Assembly (NCBI RefSeq): GCF_050920415.1
Contig: NZ_CP169309.1
Strand: one strand, 5' to 3'
From: Escherichia coli
Lineage (GTDB): Bacteria; Pseudomonadota; Gammaproteobacteria; Enterobacterales; Enterobacteriaceae
DNA: 64,000 bases
This document shows, one piece after another, positions 19,975 through 36,415 of the stretch. Numbering within the stretch: the first letter of the stretch is position 1; every line of letters starts with the position of its first letter. The notes below the pieces were generated by a model, which saw nothing but the letters and a program-made list of their open reading frames with translations, searched no databases and was not told the DNA's origin. The position numbers were made by a program, and so were the translations under genes.

Positions 19975-21447
19975 ATGGTACCTGTGGTCGCGCTTGTCGG
20001 GCGCCCTAACGTAGGAAAATCCACGTTATTTAACCGTCTAACTCGCACCCGAGATGCGCTGGTTGCGGATTTCCCGGGTCTGACTCGTGACCGTAAGTAC
20101 GGTCGTGCGGAAATTGAAGGCCGCGAGTTTATTTGTATTGATACCGGCGGGATTGACGGAACAGAAGACGGTGTAGAAACCCGCATGGCGGAACAGTCGC
20201 TGCTGGCGATTGAAGAAGCGGACGTCGTACTGTTTATGGTGGATGCGCGCGCGGGCCTGATGCCTGCGGATGAAGCGATTGCTAAACATCTGCGCTCCCG
20301 CGAAAAACCGACCTTCCTGGTGGCAAACAAAACCGATGGTCTGGATCCGGATCAGGCCGTTGTTGATTTCTATTCGCTCGGTTTAGGTGAAATCTACCCG
20401 ATCGCCGCATCTCACGGGCGTGGCGTATTAAGTCTGCTGGAGCACGTGCTGCTGCCGTGGATGGAAGATCTCGCACCACAAGAAGAAGTGGATGAAGACG
20501 CTGAGTACTGGGCGCAATTTGAAGCGGAAGAGAACGGCGAAGAAGAAGAGGAAGACGACTTTGACCCGCAAAGTCTGCCAATCAAACTGGCGATAGTGGG
20601 TCGTCCTAACGTCGGTAAGTCTACACTCACTAACCGTATCCTTGGCGAAGAACGCGTCGTAGTTTACGACATGCCGGGCACCACGCGTGACAGTATTTAC
20701 ATTCCAATGGAACGCGATGGACGTGAGTATGTACTCATCGATACTGCGGGCGTACGTAAACGCGGCAAAATCACCGATGCGGTAGAGAAATTCTCCGTAA
20801 TCAAAACATTGCAGGCGATTGAAGATGCCAACGTGGTGATGTTGGTGATTGATGCTCGCGAGGGTATTTCCGATCAGGATCTCTCCTTGCTGGGCTTTAT
20901 TCTCAATAGTGGGCGCTCACTTGTGATTGTAGTGAACAAGTGGGACGGCCTGAGCCAGGAAGTGAAAGAGCAAGTAAAAGAGACGCTGGACTTCCGTCTG
21001 GGCTTTATCGACTTCGCCCGTGTGCATTTTATCTCTGCATTACACGGCAGCGGCGTTGGTAACCTGTTTGAGTCAGTACGTGAAGCGTATGACAGTTCCA
21101 CCCGTCGTGTGGGGACATCTATGCTGACGCGTATCATGACCATGGCGGTTGAAGATCACCAGCCGCCGCTGGTTCGCGGGCGTCGTGTGAAGCTGAAATA
21201 TGCCCACGCCGGTGGTTACAATCCGCCGATTGTGGTGATTCACGGCAACCAGGTGAAAGACCTGCCTGATTCCTATAAGCGTTATCTGATGAACTACTTC
21301 CGCAAGTCTCTGGACGTGATGGGTACGCCGATTCGTATTCAGTTCAAAGAAGGGGAAAACCCATATGCGAACAAGCGTAACACCTTGACGCCGACCCAAA
21401 TGCGCAAGCGTAAGCGTTTGATGAAGCATATTAAGAAAAGTAAGTAA
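19975..21447 (+). CDS. der: Ribosome biogenesis GTPase Der (EngA), tandem GTPase domains
   Basis: ORF 19936-21447; ATG at 19975 gives 490 aa; two [10 protein letters not shown]-loops. Confidence 0.9.
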
Positions 21448-21509
21448 TCACTTATCTGGTTTCCCTTTCCAAACGGAGAGGGAAACTGAACAACAGGCGA
21501 GGAGTATTT

Positions 21510-21725
21510 ATGGAACTCAACTGCCCAACCTGCCATAACCCTCTCGAACGCAACGGTGAAACTGCCCACTGTGCAACTTGTGCCAAAGATTTCACCATTC
21601 AGGCGCTTTGTCCTGACTGCCATCAGCCATTACAGGTGTTAAAAGCTTGTGGTGCAGTAGATTATTTCTGCCAGCATGGGCACGGTTTAATATCCAAAAA
21701 GCGCGTTGAATTTATTGTTGCTTAA
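21510..21725 (+). CDS. yfgJ: Zinc-ribbon protein YfgJ
   Basis: 71 aa with CPTC...CATC...CPDC...HGH motifs; downstream of der as in K-12. Confidence 0.8.
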   Translation: MELNCPTCHNPLERNGETAHCATCAKDFTIQALCPDCHQPLQVLKACGAVDYFCQHGHGLISKKRVEFIVA

Positions 21726-21916
21726 TATTATTTAAATATATGGTGTAATCATTTGTATTCATAATATAAATGATTGCATCCTATTTTATTTGTTGAAACG
21801 CAAATGTAAGTGAGCAAAATCACTGTGTTATAAATTTAAGATTATATTTAGTTTTCCTGGCGTGCCTTTCTGAATAATCTGGAATAGAATATTAGAGCTA
21901 ATTTTAAGCATTATTA

Positions 21917-24109
21917 ATGTCACAGGGGATGTGCATGCTGCGATGGAAACGCTGTATTATGCTAACATTTATCTCTGGAGCTGCTTTTGCGGCTCCAGAG
22001 ATAAATGTTGAGCATAAAGAATCGTTACCTGATTTAGGTAGTCAGGCCGCACAACAGGAAGAACAAACCAACAAGGGTAAATCGCTAAAAGAGCGTGGTG
22101 CCGATTACGTCATTAACTCTGCCACGCAAGGGTTTGAAAACCTGACACCCGAGGCGCTGGAGTCCCAGGCCAGAAGCTATCAGCAAAGTCAAATTACCTC
22201 TACGACACAATCTTATATTGAGGATACACTCTCCCCCTACGGTAAGGTCCGAACGAATCTTTCTCTTGGTCAGGGCGGCGATCTGGATGGCAGTTCCATC
22301 GACTATTTTGTTCCCTGGTATGATAATCAAACTACTGTTTATTTCAGCCAATTTTCTGCACAACGAAAAGAAGATCGTACGATCGGGAATATTGGGCTTG
22401 GTGTAAGACATAATTTTGATAGATGGTTATTGGGTGGAAATATATTTTATGATTATGATTTTACCCGTGGGCATCGCCGTTTAGGTTTAGGCGCCGAAGC
22501 GTGGACTGATTATTTAAAATTCTCTGGCAACTATTATCACCCGCTTTCTGACTGGAAAGACTCCGAAGATTTCGATTTTTATGAGGAGCGTCCTGCGCGC
22601 GGTTGGGATATTCGCGCCGAAACCTGGCTACCCGCTTACCCGCAGATTGGCGGCAAAATCGTTTTCGAACAATATTACGGTGATGAAGTCGCGCTTTTTG
22701 GCACCGATAATCTGGAGAAAGATCCCTTCGCCGTCACGCTGGGTGTGAAATACCAGCCCGTACCACTCATTGCCGTAGGAACGGATTTCAAAGCCGGCAC
22801 TGGCGATAATACCGATCTTTCTGTTAACGCAACGCTGAACTACCAGTTTGGTGTCCCGCTCAAAGACCAGCTTGATCCTGACAAAGTGAACGCGGCTCAC
22901 TCGCTCATGGGCAGCCGCCACGACTTTGTTGAACGTAACAACTTTATTGTTCTGGAATACAAAGAGAAAGATCCGCTCGATGTCACTTTGTGGCTGAAAG
23001 CCGATGCGACGAATGAACATCCCGAGTGCGTGATTAAAGATACGCCAGAAGCAGCCATCGGGCTGGAAAAATGTAAGTGGACCATTAACGCGCTCATTAA
23101 TCATCACTACAAAATCGTTGCTGCCTCCTGGCAGGCGAAAAACAATGCTGCACGTACGCTGGTGATGCCGGTTATCAAAGAAAATACGCTTACTGAAGGT
23201 AACAACAATCACTGGAATCTGGTGCTGCCTGCCTGGCAGTACAGCTCTGATAAAGCCGACCAGGAAAAACTCAATACCTGGCGGGTACGGCTGGCGCTGG
23301 AAGATGAAAAAGGCAATCGGCAGAACTCCGGCGTGGTGGAAATCACCGTTCAGCAGGATCGTAAAATTGAGCTCATCGTTAACAACATCGCCAATGTACC
23401 GGATGAGAACAATCACAGCCACGAAGCCAGCGCGCAAGCGGATGGTGTAGATGGTGTCGTCATGGATCTCGACATTACCGATAGCTTTGGCGACAACACT
23501 GACCGTAACGGTAATGTCTTGCCGCAGGATAATCTCAGCCCGCAGCTGTTTGATGCCAACGATAAAAAAGTGACGCTGACGAATAAACCCTGCACCACTG
23601 AAGTGCCGTGCGTTTTTATCGCCAAACAAGATAAAGAAAAGGGGACCGTTACGCTCTCCAGTACGTTGCCCGGTACTTTCCGCTGGAAGGCGAAAGCCGC
23701 CCCTTATGATGACAGTAACTATGTTGACGTAACGTTCCTGGGTTCTGACATCGGCGGGCTGAATGCTTTTATCTACCGCGTTGGTGCAGCTAAGCTCGTC
23801 AATCTTATCGGCAACAAAGAACCGTTGCCTCTCAATAGCCGCTATCGCTTTGTGCTGTGGCGCGACGCTAACAAAGACGGCGTGTTCCAGCTTTCTGAGA
23901 AGCTCACTGACGACGAGATGAAACAGTATGACTATCAGTGGGAATTCACGGGGAATAGCGTAAATGGCAATACCGGTGCGCAAACCAATACCACGAACGT
24001 CGATATAGAGATTCCGGCAACCAACAAGGACGCGGCAGCAAAGTTTAGTGCCCAGGTAACCGATGGCGTGCAGGGATACGGTTTGCAGGTCAATTACAGC
24101 AAGAAATAG
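21917..24109 (+). CDS. sinH: Intimin/invasin-family inverse autotransporter (SinH-like outer-membrane adhesin)
   Basis: 730 aa; signal peptide; beta-barrel region typical of intimin/invasin (YFVPWYDNQTTVYFSQFSAQRKEDRTIGNIGLGVRHNF); preceded by AT-rich leader 21726-21916; start among ATGs at 21917/21929/21935 uncertain. Confidence 0.75.
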   Translation: MSQGMCMLRWKRCIMLTFISGAAFAAPEINVEHKESLPDLGSQAAQQEEQTNKGKSLKERGADYVINSATQGFENLTPEALESQARSYQQSQITSTTQSYIEDTLSPYGKVRTNLSLGQGGDLDGSSIDYFVPWYDNQTTVYFSQFSAQRKEDRTIGNIGLGVRHNFDRWLLGGNIFYDYDFTRGHRRLGLGAEAWTDYLKFSGNYYHPLSDWKDSEDFDFYEERPARGWDIRAETWLPAYPQIGGKIVFEQYYGDEVALFGTDNLEKDPFAVTLGVKYQPVPLIAVGTDFKAGTGDNTDLSVNATLNYQFGVPLKDQLDPDKVNAAHSLMGSRHDFVERNNFIVLEYKEKDPLDVTLWLKADATNEHPECVIKDTPEAAIGLEKCKWTINALINHHYKIVAASWQAKNNAARTLVMPVIKENTLTEGNNNHWNLVLPAWQYSSDKADQEKLNTWRVRLALEDEKGNRQNSGVVEITVQQDRKIELIVNNIANVPDENNHSHEASAQADGVDGVVMDLDITDSFGDNTDRNGNVLPQDNLSPQLFDANDKKVTLTNKPCTTEVPCVFIAKQDKEKGTVTLSSTLPGTFRWKAKAAPYDDSNYVDVTFLGSDIGGLNAFIYRVGAAKLVNLIGNKEPLPLNSRYRFVLWRDANKDGVFQLSEKLTDDEMKQYDYQWEFTGNSVNGNTGAQTNTTNVDIEIPATNKDAAAKFSAQVTDGVQGYGLQVNYSKK

Positions 24110-24164
24110 GGTCGGCGCCATGGCTGATCGGGCCACCGCTGAATATTAATCAAGGAGAGTGTTT

Positions 24165-25157
24165 ATGAAACCTGATATGAAACGTGGCCTGACAAAAGTC
24201 GCGCTCGCGTTGATGCTGGCTGGATACTGTGCCGTACCAGCCGCTATGGCGGAAGATGCCGCCTGGGTCGCCAGTGGAACGACCGCTGAATTCGAGGGGA
24301 CTATACCCTGGCTCTATCGCGAAGGGGGGAATGCCACGATTAACTCGGAAGATGCGGATCACATTAAAGTGACGTCTGATGGTAAAGGGACCCGTCCTGA
24401 AGGTAGCGAGACGGATAAACGCCTTTACTCAGGGGATACCATCACGCTGGGTTGGGATATCGGCGATACCGAAGGGGATATTGATGATGGTCCCGCAGGC
24501 ATTGATGCGAAAACGACAGCCACTATCAAATGGTACAGTTACAGCGATAATGCGGGTGGCGGTAAAACGGAGCTGACCGCAGCGGCAGGCAAGACGAGTT
24601 ATAAACTCACTGATGACGAACGTGGGCGTTATATCGGTGTTGAAATCCAGCCCATCACCCAGACCGGTAATCCTTTCCAGGGAACGTCGCTGACTCTGCT
24701 GGATATTTCAACGGCCAGCGGTGGCGGCAGCGATACGGACAATGTCGATCCCGGCCCGGTTGTGAACCAGAATCTGAAAGTTGCCATCTTCGAGAAAGGC
24801 ACCACTACCAACCTTATCGGTGGTAATACGGCCATTGCGCTTAACAAAACGTATGTGGCCAAACTGTACTCGGATGAAAACCAGAACGGTAAATACGACG
24901 CAGGTACGGATATGGACGTTACCGCTAACTATGACTTTGCATGGGTCTTTAACGGTAACAGTAAACAACTCGGTGCGGCGGGCGGTATTGCTAATGCCAG
25001 CTTCGATAACAATGACATTGTTATCCCGCAAACTAACGAAGAAGCAAGAACCAGCCTTAACGGTAGTGACCGTAATGGTAAGAGTGGTCTTGCGATCCCG
25101 GCAAACGGCGACGGCGTTCAGGGCTATACGCTGTCAATTATTTACAAACACCACTAA
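24165..25157 (+). CDS. Secreted protein, SinI-like; paralogous to the SinH C-terminal passenger region
   Basis: ORF 24159-25157; ATG at 24165 with RBS aaggagag; signal peptide; C-terminus ...GDGVQGYTLSIIYKHH parallels SinH ...DGVQGYGLQVNYSKK. Confidence 0.5.
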   Translation: MKPDMKRGLTKVALALMLAGYCAVPAAMAEDAAWVASGTTAEFEGTIPWLYREGGNATINSEDADHIKVTSDGKGTRPEGSETDKRLYSGDTITLGWDIGDTEGDIDDGPAGIDAKTTATIKWYSYSDNAGGGKTELTAAAGKTSYKLTDDERGRYIGVEIQPITQTGNPFQGTSLTLLDISTASGGGSDTDNVDPGPVVNQNLKVAIFEKGTTTNLIGGNTAIALNKTYVAKLYSDENQNGKYDAGTDMDVTANYDFAWVFNGNSKQLGAAGGIANASFDNNDIVIPQTNEEARTSLNGSDRNGKSGLAIPANGDGVQGYTLSIIYKHH

Positions 25158-25197
25158 TGCGCACAACAGCATTCCCATACGGGGATGCTGTTTTCCG

Positions 25198-25249
25198 CCT
25201 GTTTTGCTTAGCGACGCGTTAAGCAAAACAGGTTGATGTTTTGTTTATC
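25198..25249 (+). terminator. Strong hairpin (13-bp perfect arms cctgttttgctta / taagcaaaacagg) followed by T-rich tract, between sinI-like and ratA-like genes
   Basis: Inverted repeat read directly; could be a terminator or attenuator in front of ratA. Confidence 0.4.
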
Positions 25250-26209
25250 ATGCTGGAGTTTTCTACATGTCGGTATGTCTGAAACCTGGGAAAATCATTA
25301 TGCTTCTGGGCATGTTGGCAGCTTTTATGCTGTCTGACTTTGCACGGGCAGGGGCGGAATGGCAGACATATCCTGATTCTACAGGCGAGTTTAACGGAAC
25401 CGTTCCTTTTGCCGACAGCGCCAGCGTACCCGTCTATCAGGGCAGTGTTCAGCTTAATCCTGCTGAATCTCATGATGTCGGGTTTACTGCTAAACCGAAT
25501 GAATTTAGCGTTGACGATGACGCTGCTAACCTGATTGTTGCTAATCCTCAGGACAATGAAGGCGACCAGTTTTCCACACCACCTGCGCTGCGCTGGGAAA
25601 ATCAAACACCCCCTACCGTCAGCCTGATGTGGGCCGATGCCGCCACGCCCGATGTGCCCCTTAACCCACAACCCATTGCTAACCGTAGCTTTTGCGCTCA
25701 GGGGCTGGCCGGACGCTCGCTGGTGGCCTGGCCGCAGATTGATGCGCAGCAAACCCTCCCACTGCTCTACCTGCTTACCTCGACCGGGTATCCCTATGCG
25801 GGGACGGTGGCGCTGGTGGACCAGAAAGTGACCCTGAACATCGCGCCCGCGCAGGGCGATTTAATCTCGGTGAGCGCCAGTGGTTATAACGAAACGATCG
25901 CGGCGGCAAAAACCACCGTTGGCGACACCATCACGCTCACCGTCACCACTAAAGATTGTCAGGGCAACGTCGCGGGTAATATTCCGTTTATTATCAAACG
26001 TAAAGATGCTGAAAATCGCCAGGGGGCGGTGAATAATAGTGCGCCGGTGATACTGGATAGCACCGAGTTAACGACGACGGATACCGAATACCATGGCACT
26101 TCTGATGCCAACGGCACGGCCACCATCACGGTGAGCCAACCGAATGGCCCTGGCGTCAAAACGCCATTGGTGGTCAGCATCTCCGGTTTTGCGCAAACCA
26201 GCGAAACCG

Positions 26210-29200
26210 CGGTGATTTTTACGGTACTCACCAGCCCGGACGTGGCGCAGGCTACGATGTGGGGCCATATGGCGGAGACGGTAGAAGCCCACGGTTACAC
26301 CTTCAGTCGACCAAAGCTGGCGGCAGAAGTCAGCAATGAAAGCGCCACGGTCGTCGATCATAACGAAACCTGGTCCACCTTCACCTGGAGCGGCGCAGAT
26401 AGCCACTGCACCGTGCTGCCCGGCATGCGCCACTTCGGCGCGCTGGCGACCGTTATCCCCACGTCGGTGCAGACAGTCCTTGGCTGGCCGATGCAGGGGG
26501 ATTATTACTGGTCATCGCTGGCGGGCACCACCGGGCACCACCGGGCAGCACCATGCGGCGGATGTTTCAAACCGTGGTGAAATGCAAAAGCCGGATAGCA
26601 CCCCGTTTCTTGTGAGCTGCGTGGATAAACCCGCGCCTGACGTCGAACCGAAAATCGTCCTTACGCCCGAAAACTATGATGATACGGCACAGGCGATGAA
26701 AGCGAAGGTGGGTGAAGACGCCTCGATGCGTCTGACAATCACCGACAATAAAAATAACGATCAACCGCTGGCGTATTACTACTTCTCGCTGCATCTGGAT
26801 GACGGTGTTAACCGCAAAAATCAAACCGATCCTGCCTGGGAAGCCCATCCGGTGCAGATTACTGGTGGTTCGAATTTGCAACAGGTTGATGCTCACACCT
26901 ATGAAGGCATGACCGATGTCAACGGTCAGGCTTCGCTAACCCTGAGCCAGCCCGACGGCGCAGGCGTGAAAACCCATATCACGGCGAAAATGCGCAGCAA
27001 TTTTACGGCCACGGATGCCAAAGACGTGATTTTTACTGTGATCACCAGTCCGGACAGCGACAAGGCGCGGATGTGGGGCCATATGCGCGGCATTGTTGTA
27101 TCTGGCAGTCTGTTCAAACGCCCATTACTTGCGGATGAAACTGAGCATGAACTGGGATCGGTGCGGGAAAATAACGAAGACTGGGCGCTGTTCGATCAAG
27201 ACACCAGTATGCAGGCAGAATGCGGTGTGGGCCATATACCCCGGCAGAGTTCGCTGGAAGGCTTATTTACTGCCCATCCAGGCAACGCCATCGGCACGGA
27301 ATATGGCTGGCCCACCGCACAACAGAGCTACTTAAGCGCGGCGGAGCAAGCCACGCATTCATCGGTGAATTTGGCGAACGGGAGCGTCGACAGCTACTCC
27401 GGCTTTAAGCGAAATTATCTCTCCTGTTCGGGCAATGAGATGGTAGCGAACGTTGAAGTCAGCACCGATCACGATATTACTCTCGGCAGCAAAGCACAGG
27501 CCAAAGTGGGAGACACCATCGTGATGACCGTGCGTACGATTAACGCGCTCAATAATACCCCCGTTCCCTTTACAGCCTTCACCATCACTAAAGGCATGGG
27601 GTATAACCGAGCGGGGCAGGTGAGCGGGTTTGATGACCCGAGCAGCGGCGCAATCACGATGAATGGCACGCAATACGGCACATCGCAGCCCTCTATGGTC
27701 TACACGGGTACGACAGATGCACAAGGTGTAGCAACGGTCGAAATAGAGCAACCCCAAGGGGTGGGGTTAAGAACCGTGCTGAGCATTACGCCGGTCAATT
27801 CCCATCTACCAAATGCCATTAATTACAATGTTATTTTTACCACCCCAACCAGCCCGGATGTTAGTGGGGCGCAGATGTGGGGCCATATGGATGAAACGAT
27901 TACCGTTGATTCATTAACCTTTACCCGGCCTAAGCTGGCAGCAGAAATCACCAGTCCGGATGGCACATTAACGGAAAAAAACGAAGTCTGGGCGCGTGTT
28001 AGCCAGGCAAGTACGGCCATTACCAGTAAAGGCGGTTGCGGAGCCAATATGCTGCCGCGCCGCTCACAGCTCAATGCGCTCTATGACGCTAATAACGGCA
28101 ATGCGGTGCAAACCACACACGGCTGGCCGACGCAGCGTCAGCCCTACTGGAGCAGTTCCCCCGCGGATGTAACGCCGCACTATTACACCATTGCCCTGGA
28201 TAACGGCGCACAGGCTATCGGCGGCGATACGCCGGTTTACGTCAGTTGCCTGACGACGGCGAACAAACCTGCCAGCAGCATTACGTTGGATGTGGTTGAT
28301 AACGCACAGTGGGCTGCCGGAAATAACGCGGCGAAGCTGAAAAAAGGCGAAACGCTACGGGTTAAGGTAACGGTAAAAGATGCGCAGGGTAATCCGCTCA
28401 CGGATATGCCATTTAAACTCAGTCGCGGAGACGGTTATACCCGCACGGGCGAAAAACATATTGCCGGTAGTGGCGATGCGCTGGTGGCACCGGTGGTGAT
28501 TAACAGTGGGCTGGCGGATGAAACGACGTTGAACGACACCGCGGGATTTTATACTGCCATGACCAGTAGCGACGGCAGCAAAATCCTCAATATTACACGC
28601 CCGGATACTCACGGCACCAAAACGGCGCTGACGGCGACGCTTTACTCTGATGCGACGAAAAAAGACAGCCTGGATACGATCTTTACTGTGGTCACCAGCC
28701 CGGATAGTAGCAAAGCGAAAATGTGGGGCCATATGCCGGAAACCTTAACGGCGGCAGATGGTACCGTTTTTAAACGCCCATTGCTGTTAAAGGAACTGTC
28801 AAGTCAGACCGGGCGAACATCAATATTCGAAGACAATGAAAACTGGGCGCTGTTTACCCAAACCCAGGCGAACTCAACCAGTAGCGGCTGCGGCGCTAGC
28901 TATGTTCCCACTCAGGCTGGGTTGTTGTCGTTGTTTGATAATCACGCCGGCAATACCATAAAAACCGTCCAGGGCTGGCCGGTTGTAACGCGTTATTTAT
29001 CCAGCACGCCCGACAACACTGGCATGGAACAGCGTAACTACAAAGCGGTGGATCTCGGTAATGGCACCAGTGCCATGGTGTCAACGTCGACACTGGATCT
29101 ACTGACCTGTCAAACCACGCCGGTCACCACGGTGACCCAGATTCTACTGGAAGCGGCAGATCCTGCGGCTCTGGTTTATGTTGACGATACACTGAGTGTA

Positions 29201-32200
29201 GTTAAAGCCAAAAAAGGCGAAGAGTCGGTAGTGCGCGTCACCACGAAAGATGCGCAAGGTAACCCGGTTGGCAATGCGGCGTTTATTCTGAAACGTGCCA
29301 CCAGCATAAACCGGAGGTATACATCAGCGACAGCGAGTGCAGGTGCGCTGACCGTAGCCGATGCCTGGGGAAATACGCGGAGTAATTTTCAGGCAACAAC
29401 TGAAATGATCTATGGCGTGACGGGGGCTGACGGGTCGACAACCTTTACGCTGAAACAGGATAACAGTACCGGGTTAAGAACCGATCTCACGGCATCACTG
29501 GATGGCGTCAGCGGCGTTCAGGCGACCCTCCCGGTGGTCTTTACCGTGGTAACCAGCCCAGATTCTCCTAAAGCGAATTTTTGGGGGCACATGCCTGAAA
29601 CGGTAACGGCCTCTGATGGCATGACGTATAAGCGACCATTACTGTTTAAAGAACTTACCAATAACTATGCACGCTATAGCACTTTTGAGAATGGTGAAGA
29701 TTGGGCAAGATTCAGTGTGGTTCAGTCAAATAACACCGATATGGATGGATGCGGTGCAGAGTATATGCCGACACTGGATGGCCTGCAGTCTTTGTACAGT
29801 GCCAATAGTGGTAATGCGATGGGTACAGTGCAGGGATGGCCGGTAGCAACCAGTTATCTCACCAATACACCGAGTGATACGCAATTAAGTAACCGTTATT
29901 ACAATGTGGTGCAGCTGAATTCTGGCGCGGTTTCTCAAATCGTGACCACCGTGCTGGTATTACAAACCTGTCGCACAACACCTGCGGCTGTTGCCAGCCA
30001 CGTGTCTCTGGAGCCTGCGGACGCCACGCAATTCGTTAAGGTTGACGATAATCTGAGCGCCATTAAAGTGAAAAAAGGCGATGAGGTTGTTATTCGCGTC
30101 ACGACCAAAGATGCGCAAGGAAACCCGGTGGGTAATACGCCGTTTACACTGAAGCGCAGCAGTTCTTTCAATCGCCAGAATGTATTAGTGACGATGCAGA
30201 CGGTTTCGGTGACACCCGCAGCGGCCAGTACAGTTGATACCAATGCATCGGCCACCGTGTATGGCGTGACCGGGCCAGACGGAACCACCACGATAACACT
30301 CCGACAGGATGCGTCCACCGGACTTAAAACCGACTTTTATGCCCTGTTGAATGATACCGGGGTGTCGTCGAACACCTTGCCAGTGATCTTCACCGTCGTC
30401 ACCAGCCCGGATACACCGCTGGCGGCCAACTGGGGGCATATGGCGGAAACCTTTACCAGCAGCGAAGGCGTCACCTTCAAACGGCCTTTCCTCAAAGCTG
30501 AACTTTCTGGTGGTACGGCGGTTACGACTAATAATGAAGTCTGGTCGCGTCTGACAGCAACGGAGAAAATGGATGCCAGCAAGGCTGGATGTGATGAGAG
30601 TTATCAACCGCTGATGACTGACATGCAGGGGTTGTATGCGGATTACCCTAACAACCAGTTGGGCACGGTGCTCGGCTTGCCGACTTCCGCAGGGTATATG
30701 TGGGCCTACGACATGATGACGGTTTCTGGCAGCAGCTGGAGCAACCAGGCATATTCGCTCGTTAATGGTCAGATAGTTCAGGCATCGTCCAGTTATACGG
30801 CGGTAGTGATGTGCCTGGTGGAACCGCATACCGTTCCGGCGACGATAGCGATCACTTCAACAGCGCAGGATGTGGCAAAAACGGCCAGCAATGGTGGTCG
30901 ACCGAGCGCCGTGGCGAAGAAAGGTGAGACGATTCCGCTGACGGTGACCGTACGTGATAGCGCCGGGAACCCGGTGCCCTACGCCGACTTTACCCTCACG
31001 CGTGAAACGACGCTGGATCGCTCGAAAGCAACCGTTAACTCAAATGCGGACGATCTTACCGTGAAGTCATTGATACCCGTGAACAGCGACGCTGGGCTGA
31101 CGGCAAATGGGTCAAAAGTGCTCAGAACAACGGGCAGTGATGGCACAGCCACCTTTGAAGTGAGTCAGAATGCCACGACCGGTCTGGCGACACCGATAAC
31201 CGTCACGCTGGCGCGCGATACAACCAAAACCGCCACGCTGGATGTTATCTACACGGTGATAACCAGCCCGGACTCACCGAGCGCGAAATTCTGGGGGCAC
31301 ATGCCGGACACCTTTACCAGTTCGGCAGGCGTCACCTTCAGACGACCGCTGCTGAAAGCCGAAGCGACTTCAGGGTCATCGATTAGCACTAACGGCAATG
31401 GTGAAGTGTGGTCGTATATGAGCAACTTTCAAAATTTAACATCGACAGATTGTCCGCTGGAGAATCAACCGCGCAGTAATGAATTGTTGGATTTGTATAA
31501 TGATCATCCCAACGGTGCGATAAAGACTGACCTGGGGCTGCCGATATATGCAGGCAAGTGGTGGGCTTATGATATGGTCATGCCGGATTTATATACGTGG
31601 CAGTATCAAACTGTCAGCCTGAGCGCAGGAGATATCGCGAAGAGCTCGTCAACCAACGCGCTGATGCTTTGCCTGACGAAGCCGCATCCGGCAGGCGTCA
31701 GCGTAATGTTGACGTCATCCGCAATGGATAACGCCAGAACCCTCAGTAATGGCGGGCGACCCAGCGCGTCAGTGAAAAAAGGTAACCCACTGCCAATTGT
31801 GGTGACGGTCAAAGATCGTGATGGTAACCCGCTGGCGGGAGAGGCCGTGACGCTCAGGCGTGGTTCAGCGATGAGTCGTTCAGGAGCAGGAGTGAACACG
31901 ACGGCAAATGCAATTACGTTGACAGAATTGACACCTGTGTCGGCGGAGTTTTCTCTGGCCGCACACGATACGCAATGGCAAGGTTTCACCGGCAGTGATG
32001 GTACGGCCACTTTCAATGTTGAACAGCCTGAGACCATCGGCCTGGCCATTCCATTCACCGCTATACTGGCGCGAGATGTCGCAACTACCAGCGTTCTTGA
32101 TGCGATCTTTACCGTCGTCACCAGCCCGGATTCCGCAATGGCGACCTACTGGGGCCATATGCCAGATACGGTAACGGCGGAAAACGGCGTGGTCTTTGAA

Positions 32201-33000
32201 CGGCCTAAATTGTTGAAAGAGCTGCCGTCGAGCGCTGGAGTCAGTCAGGTGACGGATAACAATGAAGTGTGGCCGTTGTTTAACGCAACGCAAAGGGTAG
32301 ACGGCAACCTCAGCCCATGTGAATCGGCGCGTCGCCCATTGAGCGATGATTTATCATCGCTCTATGCGCGTTATCCGGGGAACACGCTGACGACTCAAAT
32401 CGGCTGGTCTACGAAGTATGCATGGTGGGCACTGGATAACAGGCAGGGGAATGCCCTGGTTGTCAGTCTGAGTAATGGTTTGGAGTCGTCGACGGCGAGT
32501 ACGGCGTATCAGGGATGTCTGGTCAATCCTCGCGCGACCGTCTCCAGCGTCACGCTGACATCGACCGCGATGGATGCCATTACTCAGGCGGCGAAGGTAA
32601 AAAAAGGTGAAGCCATGCCCATTGTCGTTACCGTAAAAGACAGCACCGGGAAGCCGGCACCGAATGTCGCGTTCACCTTAAAACGTGGTGATGCCGTGCC
32701 GCGTAACAGCGGGGCGACGTTGTATGGTAATGTTGCGGCGATGGATGATATGACGGTACAACCTGCCAGCGGGACGGTGGTAACGCTGGCTGACAGTGGG
32801 AATACGATTGATGGTGTGACAGGGGCGGACGGTACGGCAAGTTTTACTGTTCGTCAGGATAATACGCCAGGATATAAAACACCGTTGACGGTGACGCTGA
32901 CGGATAACGCCACAATAACGGCGACGCTGGACACAATTTTCACCGTGCCGACCAGCCCGAATGTCGCCACGGCGTATTTCTGGGGGCATATGGCGGATAC
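26210..33000 (+). repeat. Array of about nine diverged ~850-bp coding tandem modules within ratA
   Basis: Conserved DNA/protein core ttYaccgtggtcaccagcccggat...tggggccatatg recurs near 26210, 27040, 27830, 28680, 29540, 30390, 31250, 32100, 32940. Confidence 0.7.
26523..26552 (+). repeat. Three tandem copies of a 10-bp unit (gggcaccacc, gggcaccacc, gggcagcacc) at the ratA frameshift
   Basis: Read directly; removing one copy restores a continuous frame reading ...[19 protein letters not shown]... Confidence 0.8.
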
Positions 33001-33419
33001 CGCCACAGTAAGTGGCAAGACGTTACATCGCCCGCTATTGAAATCAGAGTTGCCGTCAGGGGCTACAGCGGCAGTGGCGCCAACGGTGAATAATGAAATC
33101 TGGGCGCTGGCACATGTGATCGATGCTCAAAAATGGGATGTTGCAAAGCAGTGCGGTGACTTTAGTAAAGCACCGAGCTATACCGATTTACAGTCATTAC
33201 ATAGCAGCTTTAGCGCGCTGGGATGGCCATCATCGATAAGCTTCCCCTATTTCTCTACCGATCGGGCCGGTTCGTTCTATTGTGGCATGGATGAAGGGGC
33301 GGGGACACAAAACTGCGGTATTCAGGCATCCAGTACTGCGGGGTTTGCAACCTGCTTCCAGTAGTCTTAACGGGTCTGTAAATGGGGGCCAAGATGTAAA
33401 TAAGATTCGCAATGCGTCA

Positions 33420-34817
<1,398 letters not shown>

Positions 34818-34948
34818 TTATTCAGTCGATAGTAACCCGCCCTCCGGGGATAGCAAGCATTTTTTGCAAAAAGGGGTAGATGCAATCGGTTACGCTCTGT
34901 ATAATGCCGCGGCAATATTTATTAACCACTCTGGTCGAGATATTGCCC

Positions 34949-36415
34949 ATGCTACGTATCGCTAAAGAAGCTCTGACGTTTGACGACGTTCTCCTCGTTC
35001 CTGCACATTCTACCGTTCTGCCGAATACCGCTGACCTCAGCACCCAGCTGACGAAAACTATTCGTCTGAATATCCCTATGCTCTCCGCAGCAATGGATAC
35101 CGTAACGGAAGCGCGCCTGGCTATCGCCCTGGCTCAGGAAGGCGGTATAGGCTTTATCCACAAAAACATGTCTATCGAGCGCCAGGCTGAAGAAGTTCGC
35201 CGTGTGAAAAAACACGAATCTGGCGTGGTAACCGATCCGCAGACCGTACTGCCAACCACGACGCTGCGCGAAGTGAAAGAGCTGACCGAGCGTAACGGTT
35301 TTGCAGGCTATCCGGTTGTGACCGAAGAAAACGAACTGGTCGGCATCATCACCGGTCGTGACGTGCGTTTTGTTACCGACCTGAACCAGCCGGTCAGCGT
35401 TTACATGACGCCGAAAGAGCGTCTGGTAACCGTGCGTGAAGGCGAAGCCCGTGAAGTTGTGCTGGCAAAAATGCACGAAAAACGCGTTGAAAAAGCGCTG
35501 GTGGTTGATGATGAATTCCACCTGATCGGCATGATCACTGTGAAGGACTTCCAGAAAGCGGAGCGTAAACCGAACGCCTGTAAAGACGAACAAGGCCGTC
35601 TGCGTGTAGGTGCAGCGGTTGGTGCAGGTGCGGGTAACGAAGAGCGTGTTGATGCGCTGGTTGCCGCAGGCGTTGACGTTCTGCTGATCGACTCCTCTCA
35701 CGGTCACTCTGAAGGTGTTCTGCAGCGTATCCGTGAAACTCGCGCTAAATATCCTGACCTGCAAATCATCGGCGGCAACGTGGCAACAGCAGCAGGTGCC
35801 CGCGCGCTGGCAGAAGCCGGTTGCAGTGCCGTTAAAGTGGGTATCGGCCCAGGTTCTATTTGTACTACCCGCATTGTTACTGGCGTCGGTGTACCGCAGA
35901 TCACTGCCGTTGCTGACGCAGTAGAAGCCCTGGAAGGCACCGGGATTCCGGTTATCGCTGACGGTGGTATTCGTTTCTCTGGCGATATCGCGAAAGCTAT
36001 CGCTGCTGGTGCAAGCGCGGTGATGGTAGGCTCCATGCTGGCAGGTACGGAAGAATCCCCAGGTGAAATCGAACTCTACCAGGGCCGTTCTTACAAGTCT
36101 TACCGTGGGATGGGCTCTCTGGGCGCGATGTCCAAAGGTTCTTCTGACCGTTACTTCCAGAGCGACAACGCTGCCGACAAACTGGTGCCGGAAGGTATCG
36201 AAGGTCGCGTAGCCTATAAAGGTCGCCTGAAAGAGATCATTCACCAGCAGATGGGCGGCCTGCGCTCCTGTATGGGCCTGACCGGCTGTGGTACTATCGA
36301 CGAACTGCGTACTAAAGCGGAGTTTGTACGTATCAGCGGTGCGGGCATTCAGGAAAGCCACGTTCACGACGTGACCATTACTAAAGAGTCCCCGAACTAC
36401 CGTCTGGGCTCCTGA
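34949..36415 (+). CDS. guaB: IMP dehydrogenase
   Basis: ORF 34880-36415; ATG at 34949 ([21 protein letters not shown]) gives 488 aa; CBS domains and catalytic [11 protein letters not shown] loop. Confidence 0.95.

Follow-up and report, generated by a model that had tools for sequence, protein, structure and literature searches.

The 64,000-nucleotide stretch of Escherichia coli DNA analysed here (the window; chromosome of E. coli MFDS1022581) carries at 25267-33364, on the + strand, a gene of 8,098 bp that is very probably the gene for the RatA-like adhesin of E. coli, third in order within the sinH-sinI-ratA island that is flanked by der and xseA, and composed of nine BIg21/InvE_AD units and broken in this strain by a 10-bp duplication, with modules being lost via short homology in other strains. 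In the RefSeq annotation the genes follow each other in the order der, a zinc-ribbon gene, sinH, sinI, the RatA-like gene, xseA (convergent) and guaB. The RatA-like gene immediately follows sinH and sinI and is read in the same direction, the arrangement of the island, and the same sinH-sinI-ratA order was present in every other E. coli locus fetched. In extraintestinal pathogenic E. coli and in Shiga toxin-producing E. coli O117 the literature names this cluster ila or CS54-like. Both the RatA-like gene and its repeat architecture are already catalogued and annotated, and their novelty is low; the clean pattern of single-module contraction and the lineage-specific frameshift are modest new additions.

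The listing of open reading frames (ORFs) divides the coding sequence into two overlapping frames, 25267-26580 and 26336-33364, and removal of one 10-bp unit restores a single ORF of 8,088 bp encoding 2,695 aa. Against the NCBIfam equivalog NF011844 ('RatA-like protein', E. coli and E. albertii) an intact, 99 % identical allele gives a full-length match over profile positions 1-2683 with 5,410 bits (cutoff 3,870), and the two frame pieces of the window copy gave 889 bits (positions 1-413) and 4,491 bits (positions 415-2683). The model, whose length of 2,683 aa is that of the CFT073/Nissle allele, describes an intact, translatable gene, whereas the window copy is split by the frameshift, with a stop at 26578-26580 and a RefSeq entry as a frameshifted pseudogene. 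The Salmonella equivalogs RatA (NF011843) and RatB (NF011842) were matched with 1,975 and 2,252 bits, below their cutoffs of 3,700 and 4,079. Since the host is E. coli, the gene falls in the 'RatA-like' orthologue group and is not Salmonella ratA proper, so that the name ratA in the original prediction, made from the sequence alone, was right as to the family and wrong if taken as the Salmonella gene itself. The names 'ribosome association toxin A-like protein' and 'ratA-like toxin' are sometimes given to the adhesin (protein P0293; bioRxiv 10.1101/2023.12.11.571174), which is unrelated to the RatA toxin.

The nine tandem modules of about 850 bp (about 280 aa, with a TSPD..WGHM core) that had been predicted are fully borne out. 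The repeat search returned one family, in which a 66-nt unit occurs nine times between 26214 and 33000; from start to start the copies are 814, 804, 846, 858, 849, 861, 858 and 831 nt apart. The degenerate anchor AGYCCNRAY-N9-GC-N7-TGGGGNCAYATG, with one mismatch allowed, has exactly nine matches in the 64-kb window, all on the + strand of the RatA-like gene and in frame, compared with 0.00 expected by chance (100 shuffles). The periodicity check that had been suggested also came out as foreseen, the in-frame self-identity of the gene having a peak of 0.305 at offsets 858/861 (mean 0.2605, standard deviation 0.0085). Tandem Repeats Finder (TRF), with a longest period of 500 and faced with copies too diverged, did not report the 850-bp array and found only a 10-bp tract.

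Pfam searches of residues 1-1150 and 1991-2695 revealed alternating InvE_AD (PF05689, 'Adhesion domain', formerly DUF824) and BIg21 (PF05688, formerly DUF823) domains with E values from 1e-20 to 5e-35, and half-module hidden Markov models (HMMs) extended this to (BIg21-InvE_AD)x9 over the whole repaired protein, the make-up of a DUF823/DUF824 repeat adhesin. Each unit of about 280 aa consists of an InvE_AD adhesion domain followed by a BIg21 Ig-like domain. The repeated array in fact begins with the first BIg21 domain, at about 25921, and ends with the last codon, at 33361; the boundaries originally predicted went from anchor to anchor. No Pfam domain was found before residue 219 of the repaired protein. 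The parts of the gene are as follows.

25267-25920, + strand: N-terminus with a signal-peptide-like start (read by eye from the translation), then a family-specific region of about 190 aa.
25921-26229, + strand: first BIg21 Ig-like domain, aa 219-321 (PF05688, E 2.4e-27).
26230-27043, + strand: module 1 (InvE_AD and BIg21; anchor at 26233, Pfam matches at aa 324-449 and 483-589), which holds the frameshifting duplication.
27044-27847, + strand: module 2 (Pfam, anchor).
27848-28693, + strand: module 3 (Pfam, anchor).
28694-29551, + strand: module 4, whose nearest paralogue is module 5 (52 % aa identity; HMM, anchor; AlphaFold model with a predicted local distance difference test score, pLDDT, of 80).
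29552-30400, + strand: module 5 (HMM, anchor).
30401-31261, + strand: module 6, whose nearest paralogue is module 7 (46 % aa identity; HMM, anchor).
31262-32119, + strand: module 7 (Pfam, anchor).
32120-32950, + strand: module 8 (Pfam, anchor).
32951-33361, + strand: module 9, a terminal InvE_AD alone with additional cysteines (Pfam, anchor).

The unit formed by BIg21 and the adhesion domain matched the crystal structure of Yersinia pseudotuberculosis InvE (5N40) with an E value of 4.7e-32. Weaker matches were obtained to FGE/EgtB-type domains and to the C-terminal domain of Legionella Lcl, together with a weak Pfam Lcl_C match. DUF823 has been grouped with DUF1566 in a class containing the CLec2 variable regions of diversity-generating retroelement targets. 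The Lcl and FGE matches and this grouping fit, and do not prove, a C-type-lectin-like binding domain, with which InvE_AD is consistent. The antisense ORFs within the RatA-like gene had no family matches, and an Rfam scan of 21000-35000 returned nothing.

The gene is carried by about 1,736 of 5,426 complete genomes, and the nine-module form dominates (about 1,689 of the 1,736). At least 80 % of the window/ST131-type query (ST131, sequence type 131) was held by 752 genomes, with sampled lengths of 8,072-8,098 bp, and at least 80 % of the CFT073/Nissle-type query by 937 genomes (8,043-8,052 bp), counts at a coverage that is blind to a loss of 10 %. Four alleles that were translated have nine anchors each, in near-identical spacing. 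A diverged seven-module class accounts for 48 of the complete E. coli genomes; in one of them, O145 RM9154-C1, the gene is intact (6,420 bp, 2,139 aa). This allele is colinear with the 2,140-aa form of E. albertii, one module replacing modules 4 and 5 and another replacing modules 6 and 7. As these two are the most similar pairs inside the nine-module protein and have single counterparts in the seven-module form, the arrangement fits two old single-module duplications. We had considered, from match lengths in complete genomes, that module number was fixed at nine in E. coli, which is overturned by the seven-module O145-type allele and by the eight-module variants described below.

A public protein search gave, among its best 120 clusters, about 30 complete proteins with lengths between 2,396 and 2,443 aa, as well as a single protein of 2,131 aa and another of 3,264 aa. 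The short forms are 97-100 % identical to their closest nine-module protein outside a single gap, several of them 100.0 % to the EC958 or Nissle protein, and the gap amounts to one module period (250-287 aa), mostly with the same offset at both ends in two adjacent modules; it is out of register in two proteins (P0223 and P0225). We distinguished about 20 junction classes, spread over all eight adjacent module pairs and located mostly in the TSPD..WGHM anchor, some of them at other conserved motifs. At the DNA level the junctions are exact in-register matches of 9-17 nt, e.g. GATGTGGGGCCATATG, ACCAGCCCGGAT and GGCGTCACCTTCAAACG, which encode the conserved motifs TSPD, WGHM, NNExWA and GVTFKRP and are surrounded by only 50-75 % identity over 100 nt. 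One eight-module protein (P0208) is a relative of the window-type allele with its junction at CTGGGCGC, corresponding to 27181/27988 of the window. In-frame whole-repeat alleles therefore exist among near-identical strains, as in other repeat-number-variable surface proteins, and the length variation that had been foreseen for this adhesin is confirmed in 9-, 7-, 8- and 11-module forms, in whole-module steps. The nine-module clusters have thousands of members and the eight-module clusters one each, which argues that the losses are rare and recent. In the 11-module protein the two extra modules are about 50 % identical to modules 5 and 6, and this form reflects an old expansion; no recent expansion was seen among the public proteins.

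The identity between modules is 26-52 % in protein and 37-57 % in codon-aligned DNA (median 45 %), so that 'moderately diverged', as they were first described, is an understatement; the repeats arose by tandem duplication long ago and have since drifted apart to this level. Between modules, identity reaches 75 % in the best 100-column window, and in-register identical runs do not exceed 18 nt. Exact direct repeats in the gene extend to 21 nt at most, no longer than the codon-shuffle maximum, adjacent modules of the window allele share near-register exact matches of 9-16 nt at the longest, no 31-mer is repeated in the gene, and short-read Logan contigs span it. Efficient RecA-dependent exchange needs homology far longer than these matches, which are also shorter than the k-mers at which assemblers would merge repeats, and the repeats lack the high DNA identity sufficient for homologous recombination. 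Given the DNA identity and the 21-nt maximum, recombination over long homology and collapse of the repeats in assemblies are both unlikely.

It is consequently very unlikely that the repeats of about 850 bp are similar enough for ordinary RecA-dependent recombination, with frequent expansion and contraction and with collapse by assemblers, even though strains do vary in module number and the junctions are mainly in register: besides the low identities and the short exact matches just given, no recent expansion was seen, about 97 % of the complete genomes carrying the gene keep nine modules, and the gene is spanned by short-read contigs. From the recombinational expansion and contraction put forward in the original prediction, what stands is recent contraction, by events that look like short-homology (9-17 nt) or slippage-type deletions; recombination between long similar repeats is not supported, the expansions are ancient, and the assembly collapse that had been thought possible finds no support, given the absence of any repeated 31-mer and the spanning Logan contigs.

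One might suspect that the eight-module 'alleles' result from assembly errors, with conserved motifs wrongly joined into chimeras, and that real genes always have nine or seven modules: draft or Logan assemblies supply most of them, as clusters with one member each, and outside the gap they match common alleles at up to 100 % identity. We regard this as extremely unlikely. The query for the junction of the module 5 deletion was found contiguous in two finished chromosomes, BEN5202 and FDAARGOS_1298, in which an intact coding sequence of 7,200 bp with eight modules is annotated; the eight-module forms of these two strains are real alleles. Several variants, moreover, occur in both NCBI and Logan. 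The Logan assembler uses k = 31, and both the junction matches (9-17 nt) and the longest repeats of the parent alleles (17-20 nt) are shorter than de Bruijn k-mers, so that k-mers spanning the junctions must be in the reads. The EC958-type junction of the module 2 deletion was found in no complete genome.

In the window the gene is interrupted in module 1, by two features.

26522-26551, + strand: 10-bp tandem tract, CGGGCACCAC in three copies, the third imperfect (TRF, sequence, and alignment to N96 and 2013C-4282).
26578-26580, + strand: premature TGA stop closing a 437-aa product, out of frame over about its last 18 residues (ORF list, translation).

The two closest relatives, N96 and 2013C-4282, have a tract one unit shorter and an intact coding sequence, and RefSeq labels the window copy 'adhesion domain-containing protein, frameshifted'. 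This pseudogene state had been missed when the gene was first taken as an adhesin, a reading that holds for the family. Among the 1,735 complete genomes with the site, the extra unit is found in the window's own record only. The 437-aa truncated product recurs exactly in 84 index blocks, among them five NCBI assemblies and one Logan run, and the extra unit is present in all six fetched loci, which are independent assemblies of the lineage. The frameshift mutation is real and lineage-wide and is not a sequencing error. Because CGGGCA repeats (6 nt) flank the tract 10 nt apart, the duplication likely arose by slippage between them. The piece downstream of the frameshift would be without a signal peptide, so the adhesin is presumably inactivated and non-functional in this strain, only the 437-aa fragment keeping the signal-peptide-like N-terminus. 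In related assemblies the gene callers annotate a second ORF of 2,260 aa starting at 26582 of the window (TGAAATG), right after the premature stop; this product would also lack a signal peptide.

Known contingency loci have longer tracts that vary in length among close relatives, a variability that the present tract does not display. The chance that the 10-bp tract is a contingency (phase-variation) switch turning the adhesin reversibly on and off is practically negligible, for although it is a tandem repeat in a surface-protein gene with a unit length that is not a multiple of three, it has merely about three copies versus two, the identical extra copy is in all six independent assemblies of the lineage, and the shorter form is in all the other listed genomes with the site, the window's own record being the only one with at least 99 % identity over it.

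Damage to the gene takes other forms elsewhere. In E19 the RatA-like gene is truncated by an ISEcp1-blaCTX-M-15 unit inserted into its 3' end. WL297 has three out-of-register deletions (from sinH to sinI, from sinI to ratA module 3, and from ratA module 3 to just before module 9), which leave a longer sinH coding sequence (2,451 bp vs 2,175 bp) fused to ratA sequence and followed by a ratA remnant. In 14EC033, which has a seven-module allele, an 835-bp deletion is joined at the 6-nt microhomology CTCAGG, about 8-12 codons out of register, with an additional 1-nt insertion 246 nt downstream of the deletion, and the gene is annotated as frameshifted. WL297 and 14EC033 were rejected as cases of module recombination, their deletions being out of register, microhomology-based and frame-disrupting or gene-fusing. 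A 'ratA-like' gene was reported as repeatedly mutated in a hospital study of ST131 (bioRxiv 10.1101/2023.12.11.571174), and pseudogenisation of the RatA-like gene seems to be common.

Three Salmonella hybrids were found only in Logan (P0009, P0011 and P0012): SinH(1-504)::RatA, RatA(1-678)::RatB(2096-2435) (49 index blocks) and an internally deleted RatA. The RatA::RatB contig that was examined ends shortly after the gene, and these hybrids may be deletions between paralogues or chimeric assemblies.

The two genes upstream of the RatA-like gene are both intact in the window.

21935-24109, + strand: sinH, an intimin-like inverse autotransporter gene that opens the sinH-sinI-ratA ('ila') cluster (RefSeq; NCBIfam NF033423, 1467 bits vs a cutoff of 999).
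24165-25157, + strand: sinI, encoding a SinI-family autotransporter-associated protein (RefSeq; NCBIfam NF040711, 376 bits vs a cutoff of 165).
25197-25233, + strand: hairpin with a 17-bp stem and a T-rich tail in the sinI-ratA spacer (25158-25266), found in a terminator-like scan.

The RNA of this hairpin has a minimum free energy of -26.3 kcal/mol (z -5.2), and the structure is kept in the EC958, Nissle and O145 alleles, where both arms of the stem have taken substitutions. Its probable role is that of a terminator or attenuator keeping the expression of ratA apart from that of sinH-sinI. In the O145-type locus the spacer exceeds that of the other alleles by about 190 nt and includes a repetitive extragenic palindromic (REP)-like sequence.

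The diversity of the island goes beyond the RatA-like gene. Between EC958 and Nissle xseA is 96 % identical, but the 3' end of sinH is only 73 %, sinI 68 % and ratA 66-75 % identical. Judging by identities of this order, the whole sinH-sinI-ratA island is a set of deeply diverged allele classes within the species. The window der gene (19975-21447) has 90-95 % identity to 5,406 of the 5,426 RefSeq complete 'E. coli' genomes and at least 95 % to about 20, and the window xseA gene (33420-34787) has 80-90 % identity to 5,196 genomes. An imported segment, considered on account of the divergent xseA (88 %), was rejected as der is also divergent, which places the strain in a divergent Escherichia lineage.

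We propose that the loss of modules would proceed by replication slippage or short-homology recombination at the 9-17-nt matches, not by RecA-type exchange over long homology. An intact RatA-like protein would be exported by the Sec pathway and then passed on to SinH, the inverse autotransporter encoded with it, or secreted through SinH, and at the surface it would display as many as nine lectin-like binding domains, with the Ig-like domains as spacers. No IAT_beta match was found in residues 1-1150 of the RatA-like protein, which is not itself an inverse autotransporter, the barrel being in the neighbouring SinH. Heinz et al. (2016) drew an analogy with ZirTSU and proposed Rat-like proteins as substrates of the inverse autotransporter encoded beside them, and in these terms the RatA-like protein has been proposed as a SinH-dependent two-partner (ZirS-like) substrate. 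The ZirT/ZirS/ZirU-type systems resemble the present locus in that the gene for an inverse autotransporter precedes genes whose Ig-domain products have no barrel, and differ in that for RatA the SinH-dependent secretion is a proposal by analogy. RatA is also about 10 times larger than ZirS and ZirU.

RatA and RatB of the Salmonella enterica CS54 island (NF011843 and NF011842, 'DUF823/DUF824 repeat adhesin') share with the RatA-like protein the BIg21 and InvE_AD module, the N-terminal region and the place downstream of sinH-sinI; their models, however, are 1,860 and 2,435 aa long, fitting about 6 and 8 modules versus nine in E. coli, and E. coli has a single gene, without shdA and ratB. InvE of Y. 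pseudotuberculosis (5N40) is an inverse autotransporter with its own beta-barrel and has a single C-terminal adhesion domain, whereas the RatA-like protein has nine. Streptococcal alpha C/Rib and staphylococcal Bap/Sdr proteins gain and lose whole repeats in frame among strains, their repeats being near-identical in DNA and their variation frequent. The RatA-like protein resembles them in this whole-repeat, in-frame change of surface-protein length among strains, but its modules are about 45 % identical, the homologies used are of 9-17 nt, and the events are rare and nearly all losses.

It is tempting to go further and to see in the conserved motif stretches (TSPD, WGHM and others) registration marks for clean in-frame loss, which would allow a slow, selectable change of the length, valency or antigenic make-up of RatA, with nine (or 7, 8 or 11) lectin-like domains of different ligand specificities and with allele classes kept by host or immune selection. 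We consider this extension rather unlikely.

The kind of gene is unchanged by these findings. They indicate that clean in-frame loss of repeats is possible between repeats of only about 45 % DNA identity, via matches of 9-17 nt. Extraintestinal pathogenic E. coli are enriched for the sinH-sinI-ratA island, and efforts are under way to use SinH as a vaccine antigen. When strains are typed, when vaccines and antigens are studied and when 'presence/absence' screens of virulence genes are interpreted, it is relevant that this giant adhesin is often inactivated, exists as deeply diverged alleles and changes its length by whole modules.

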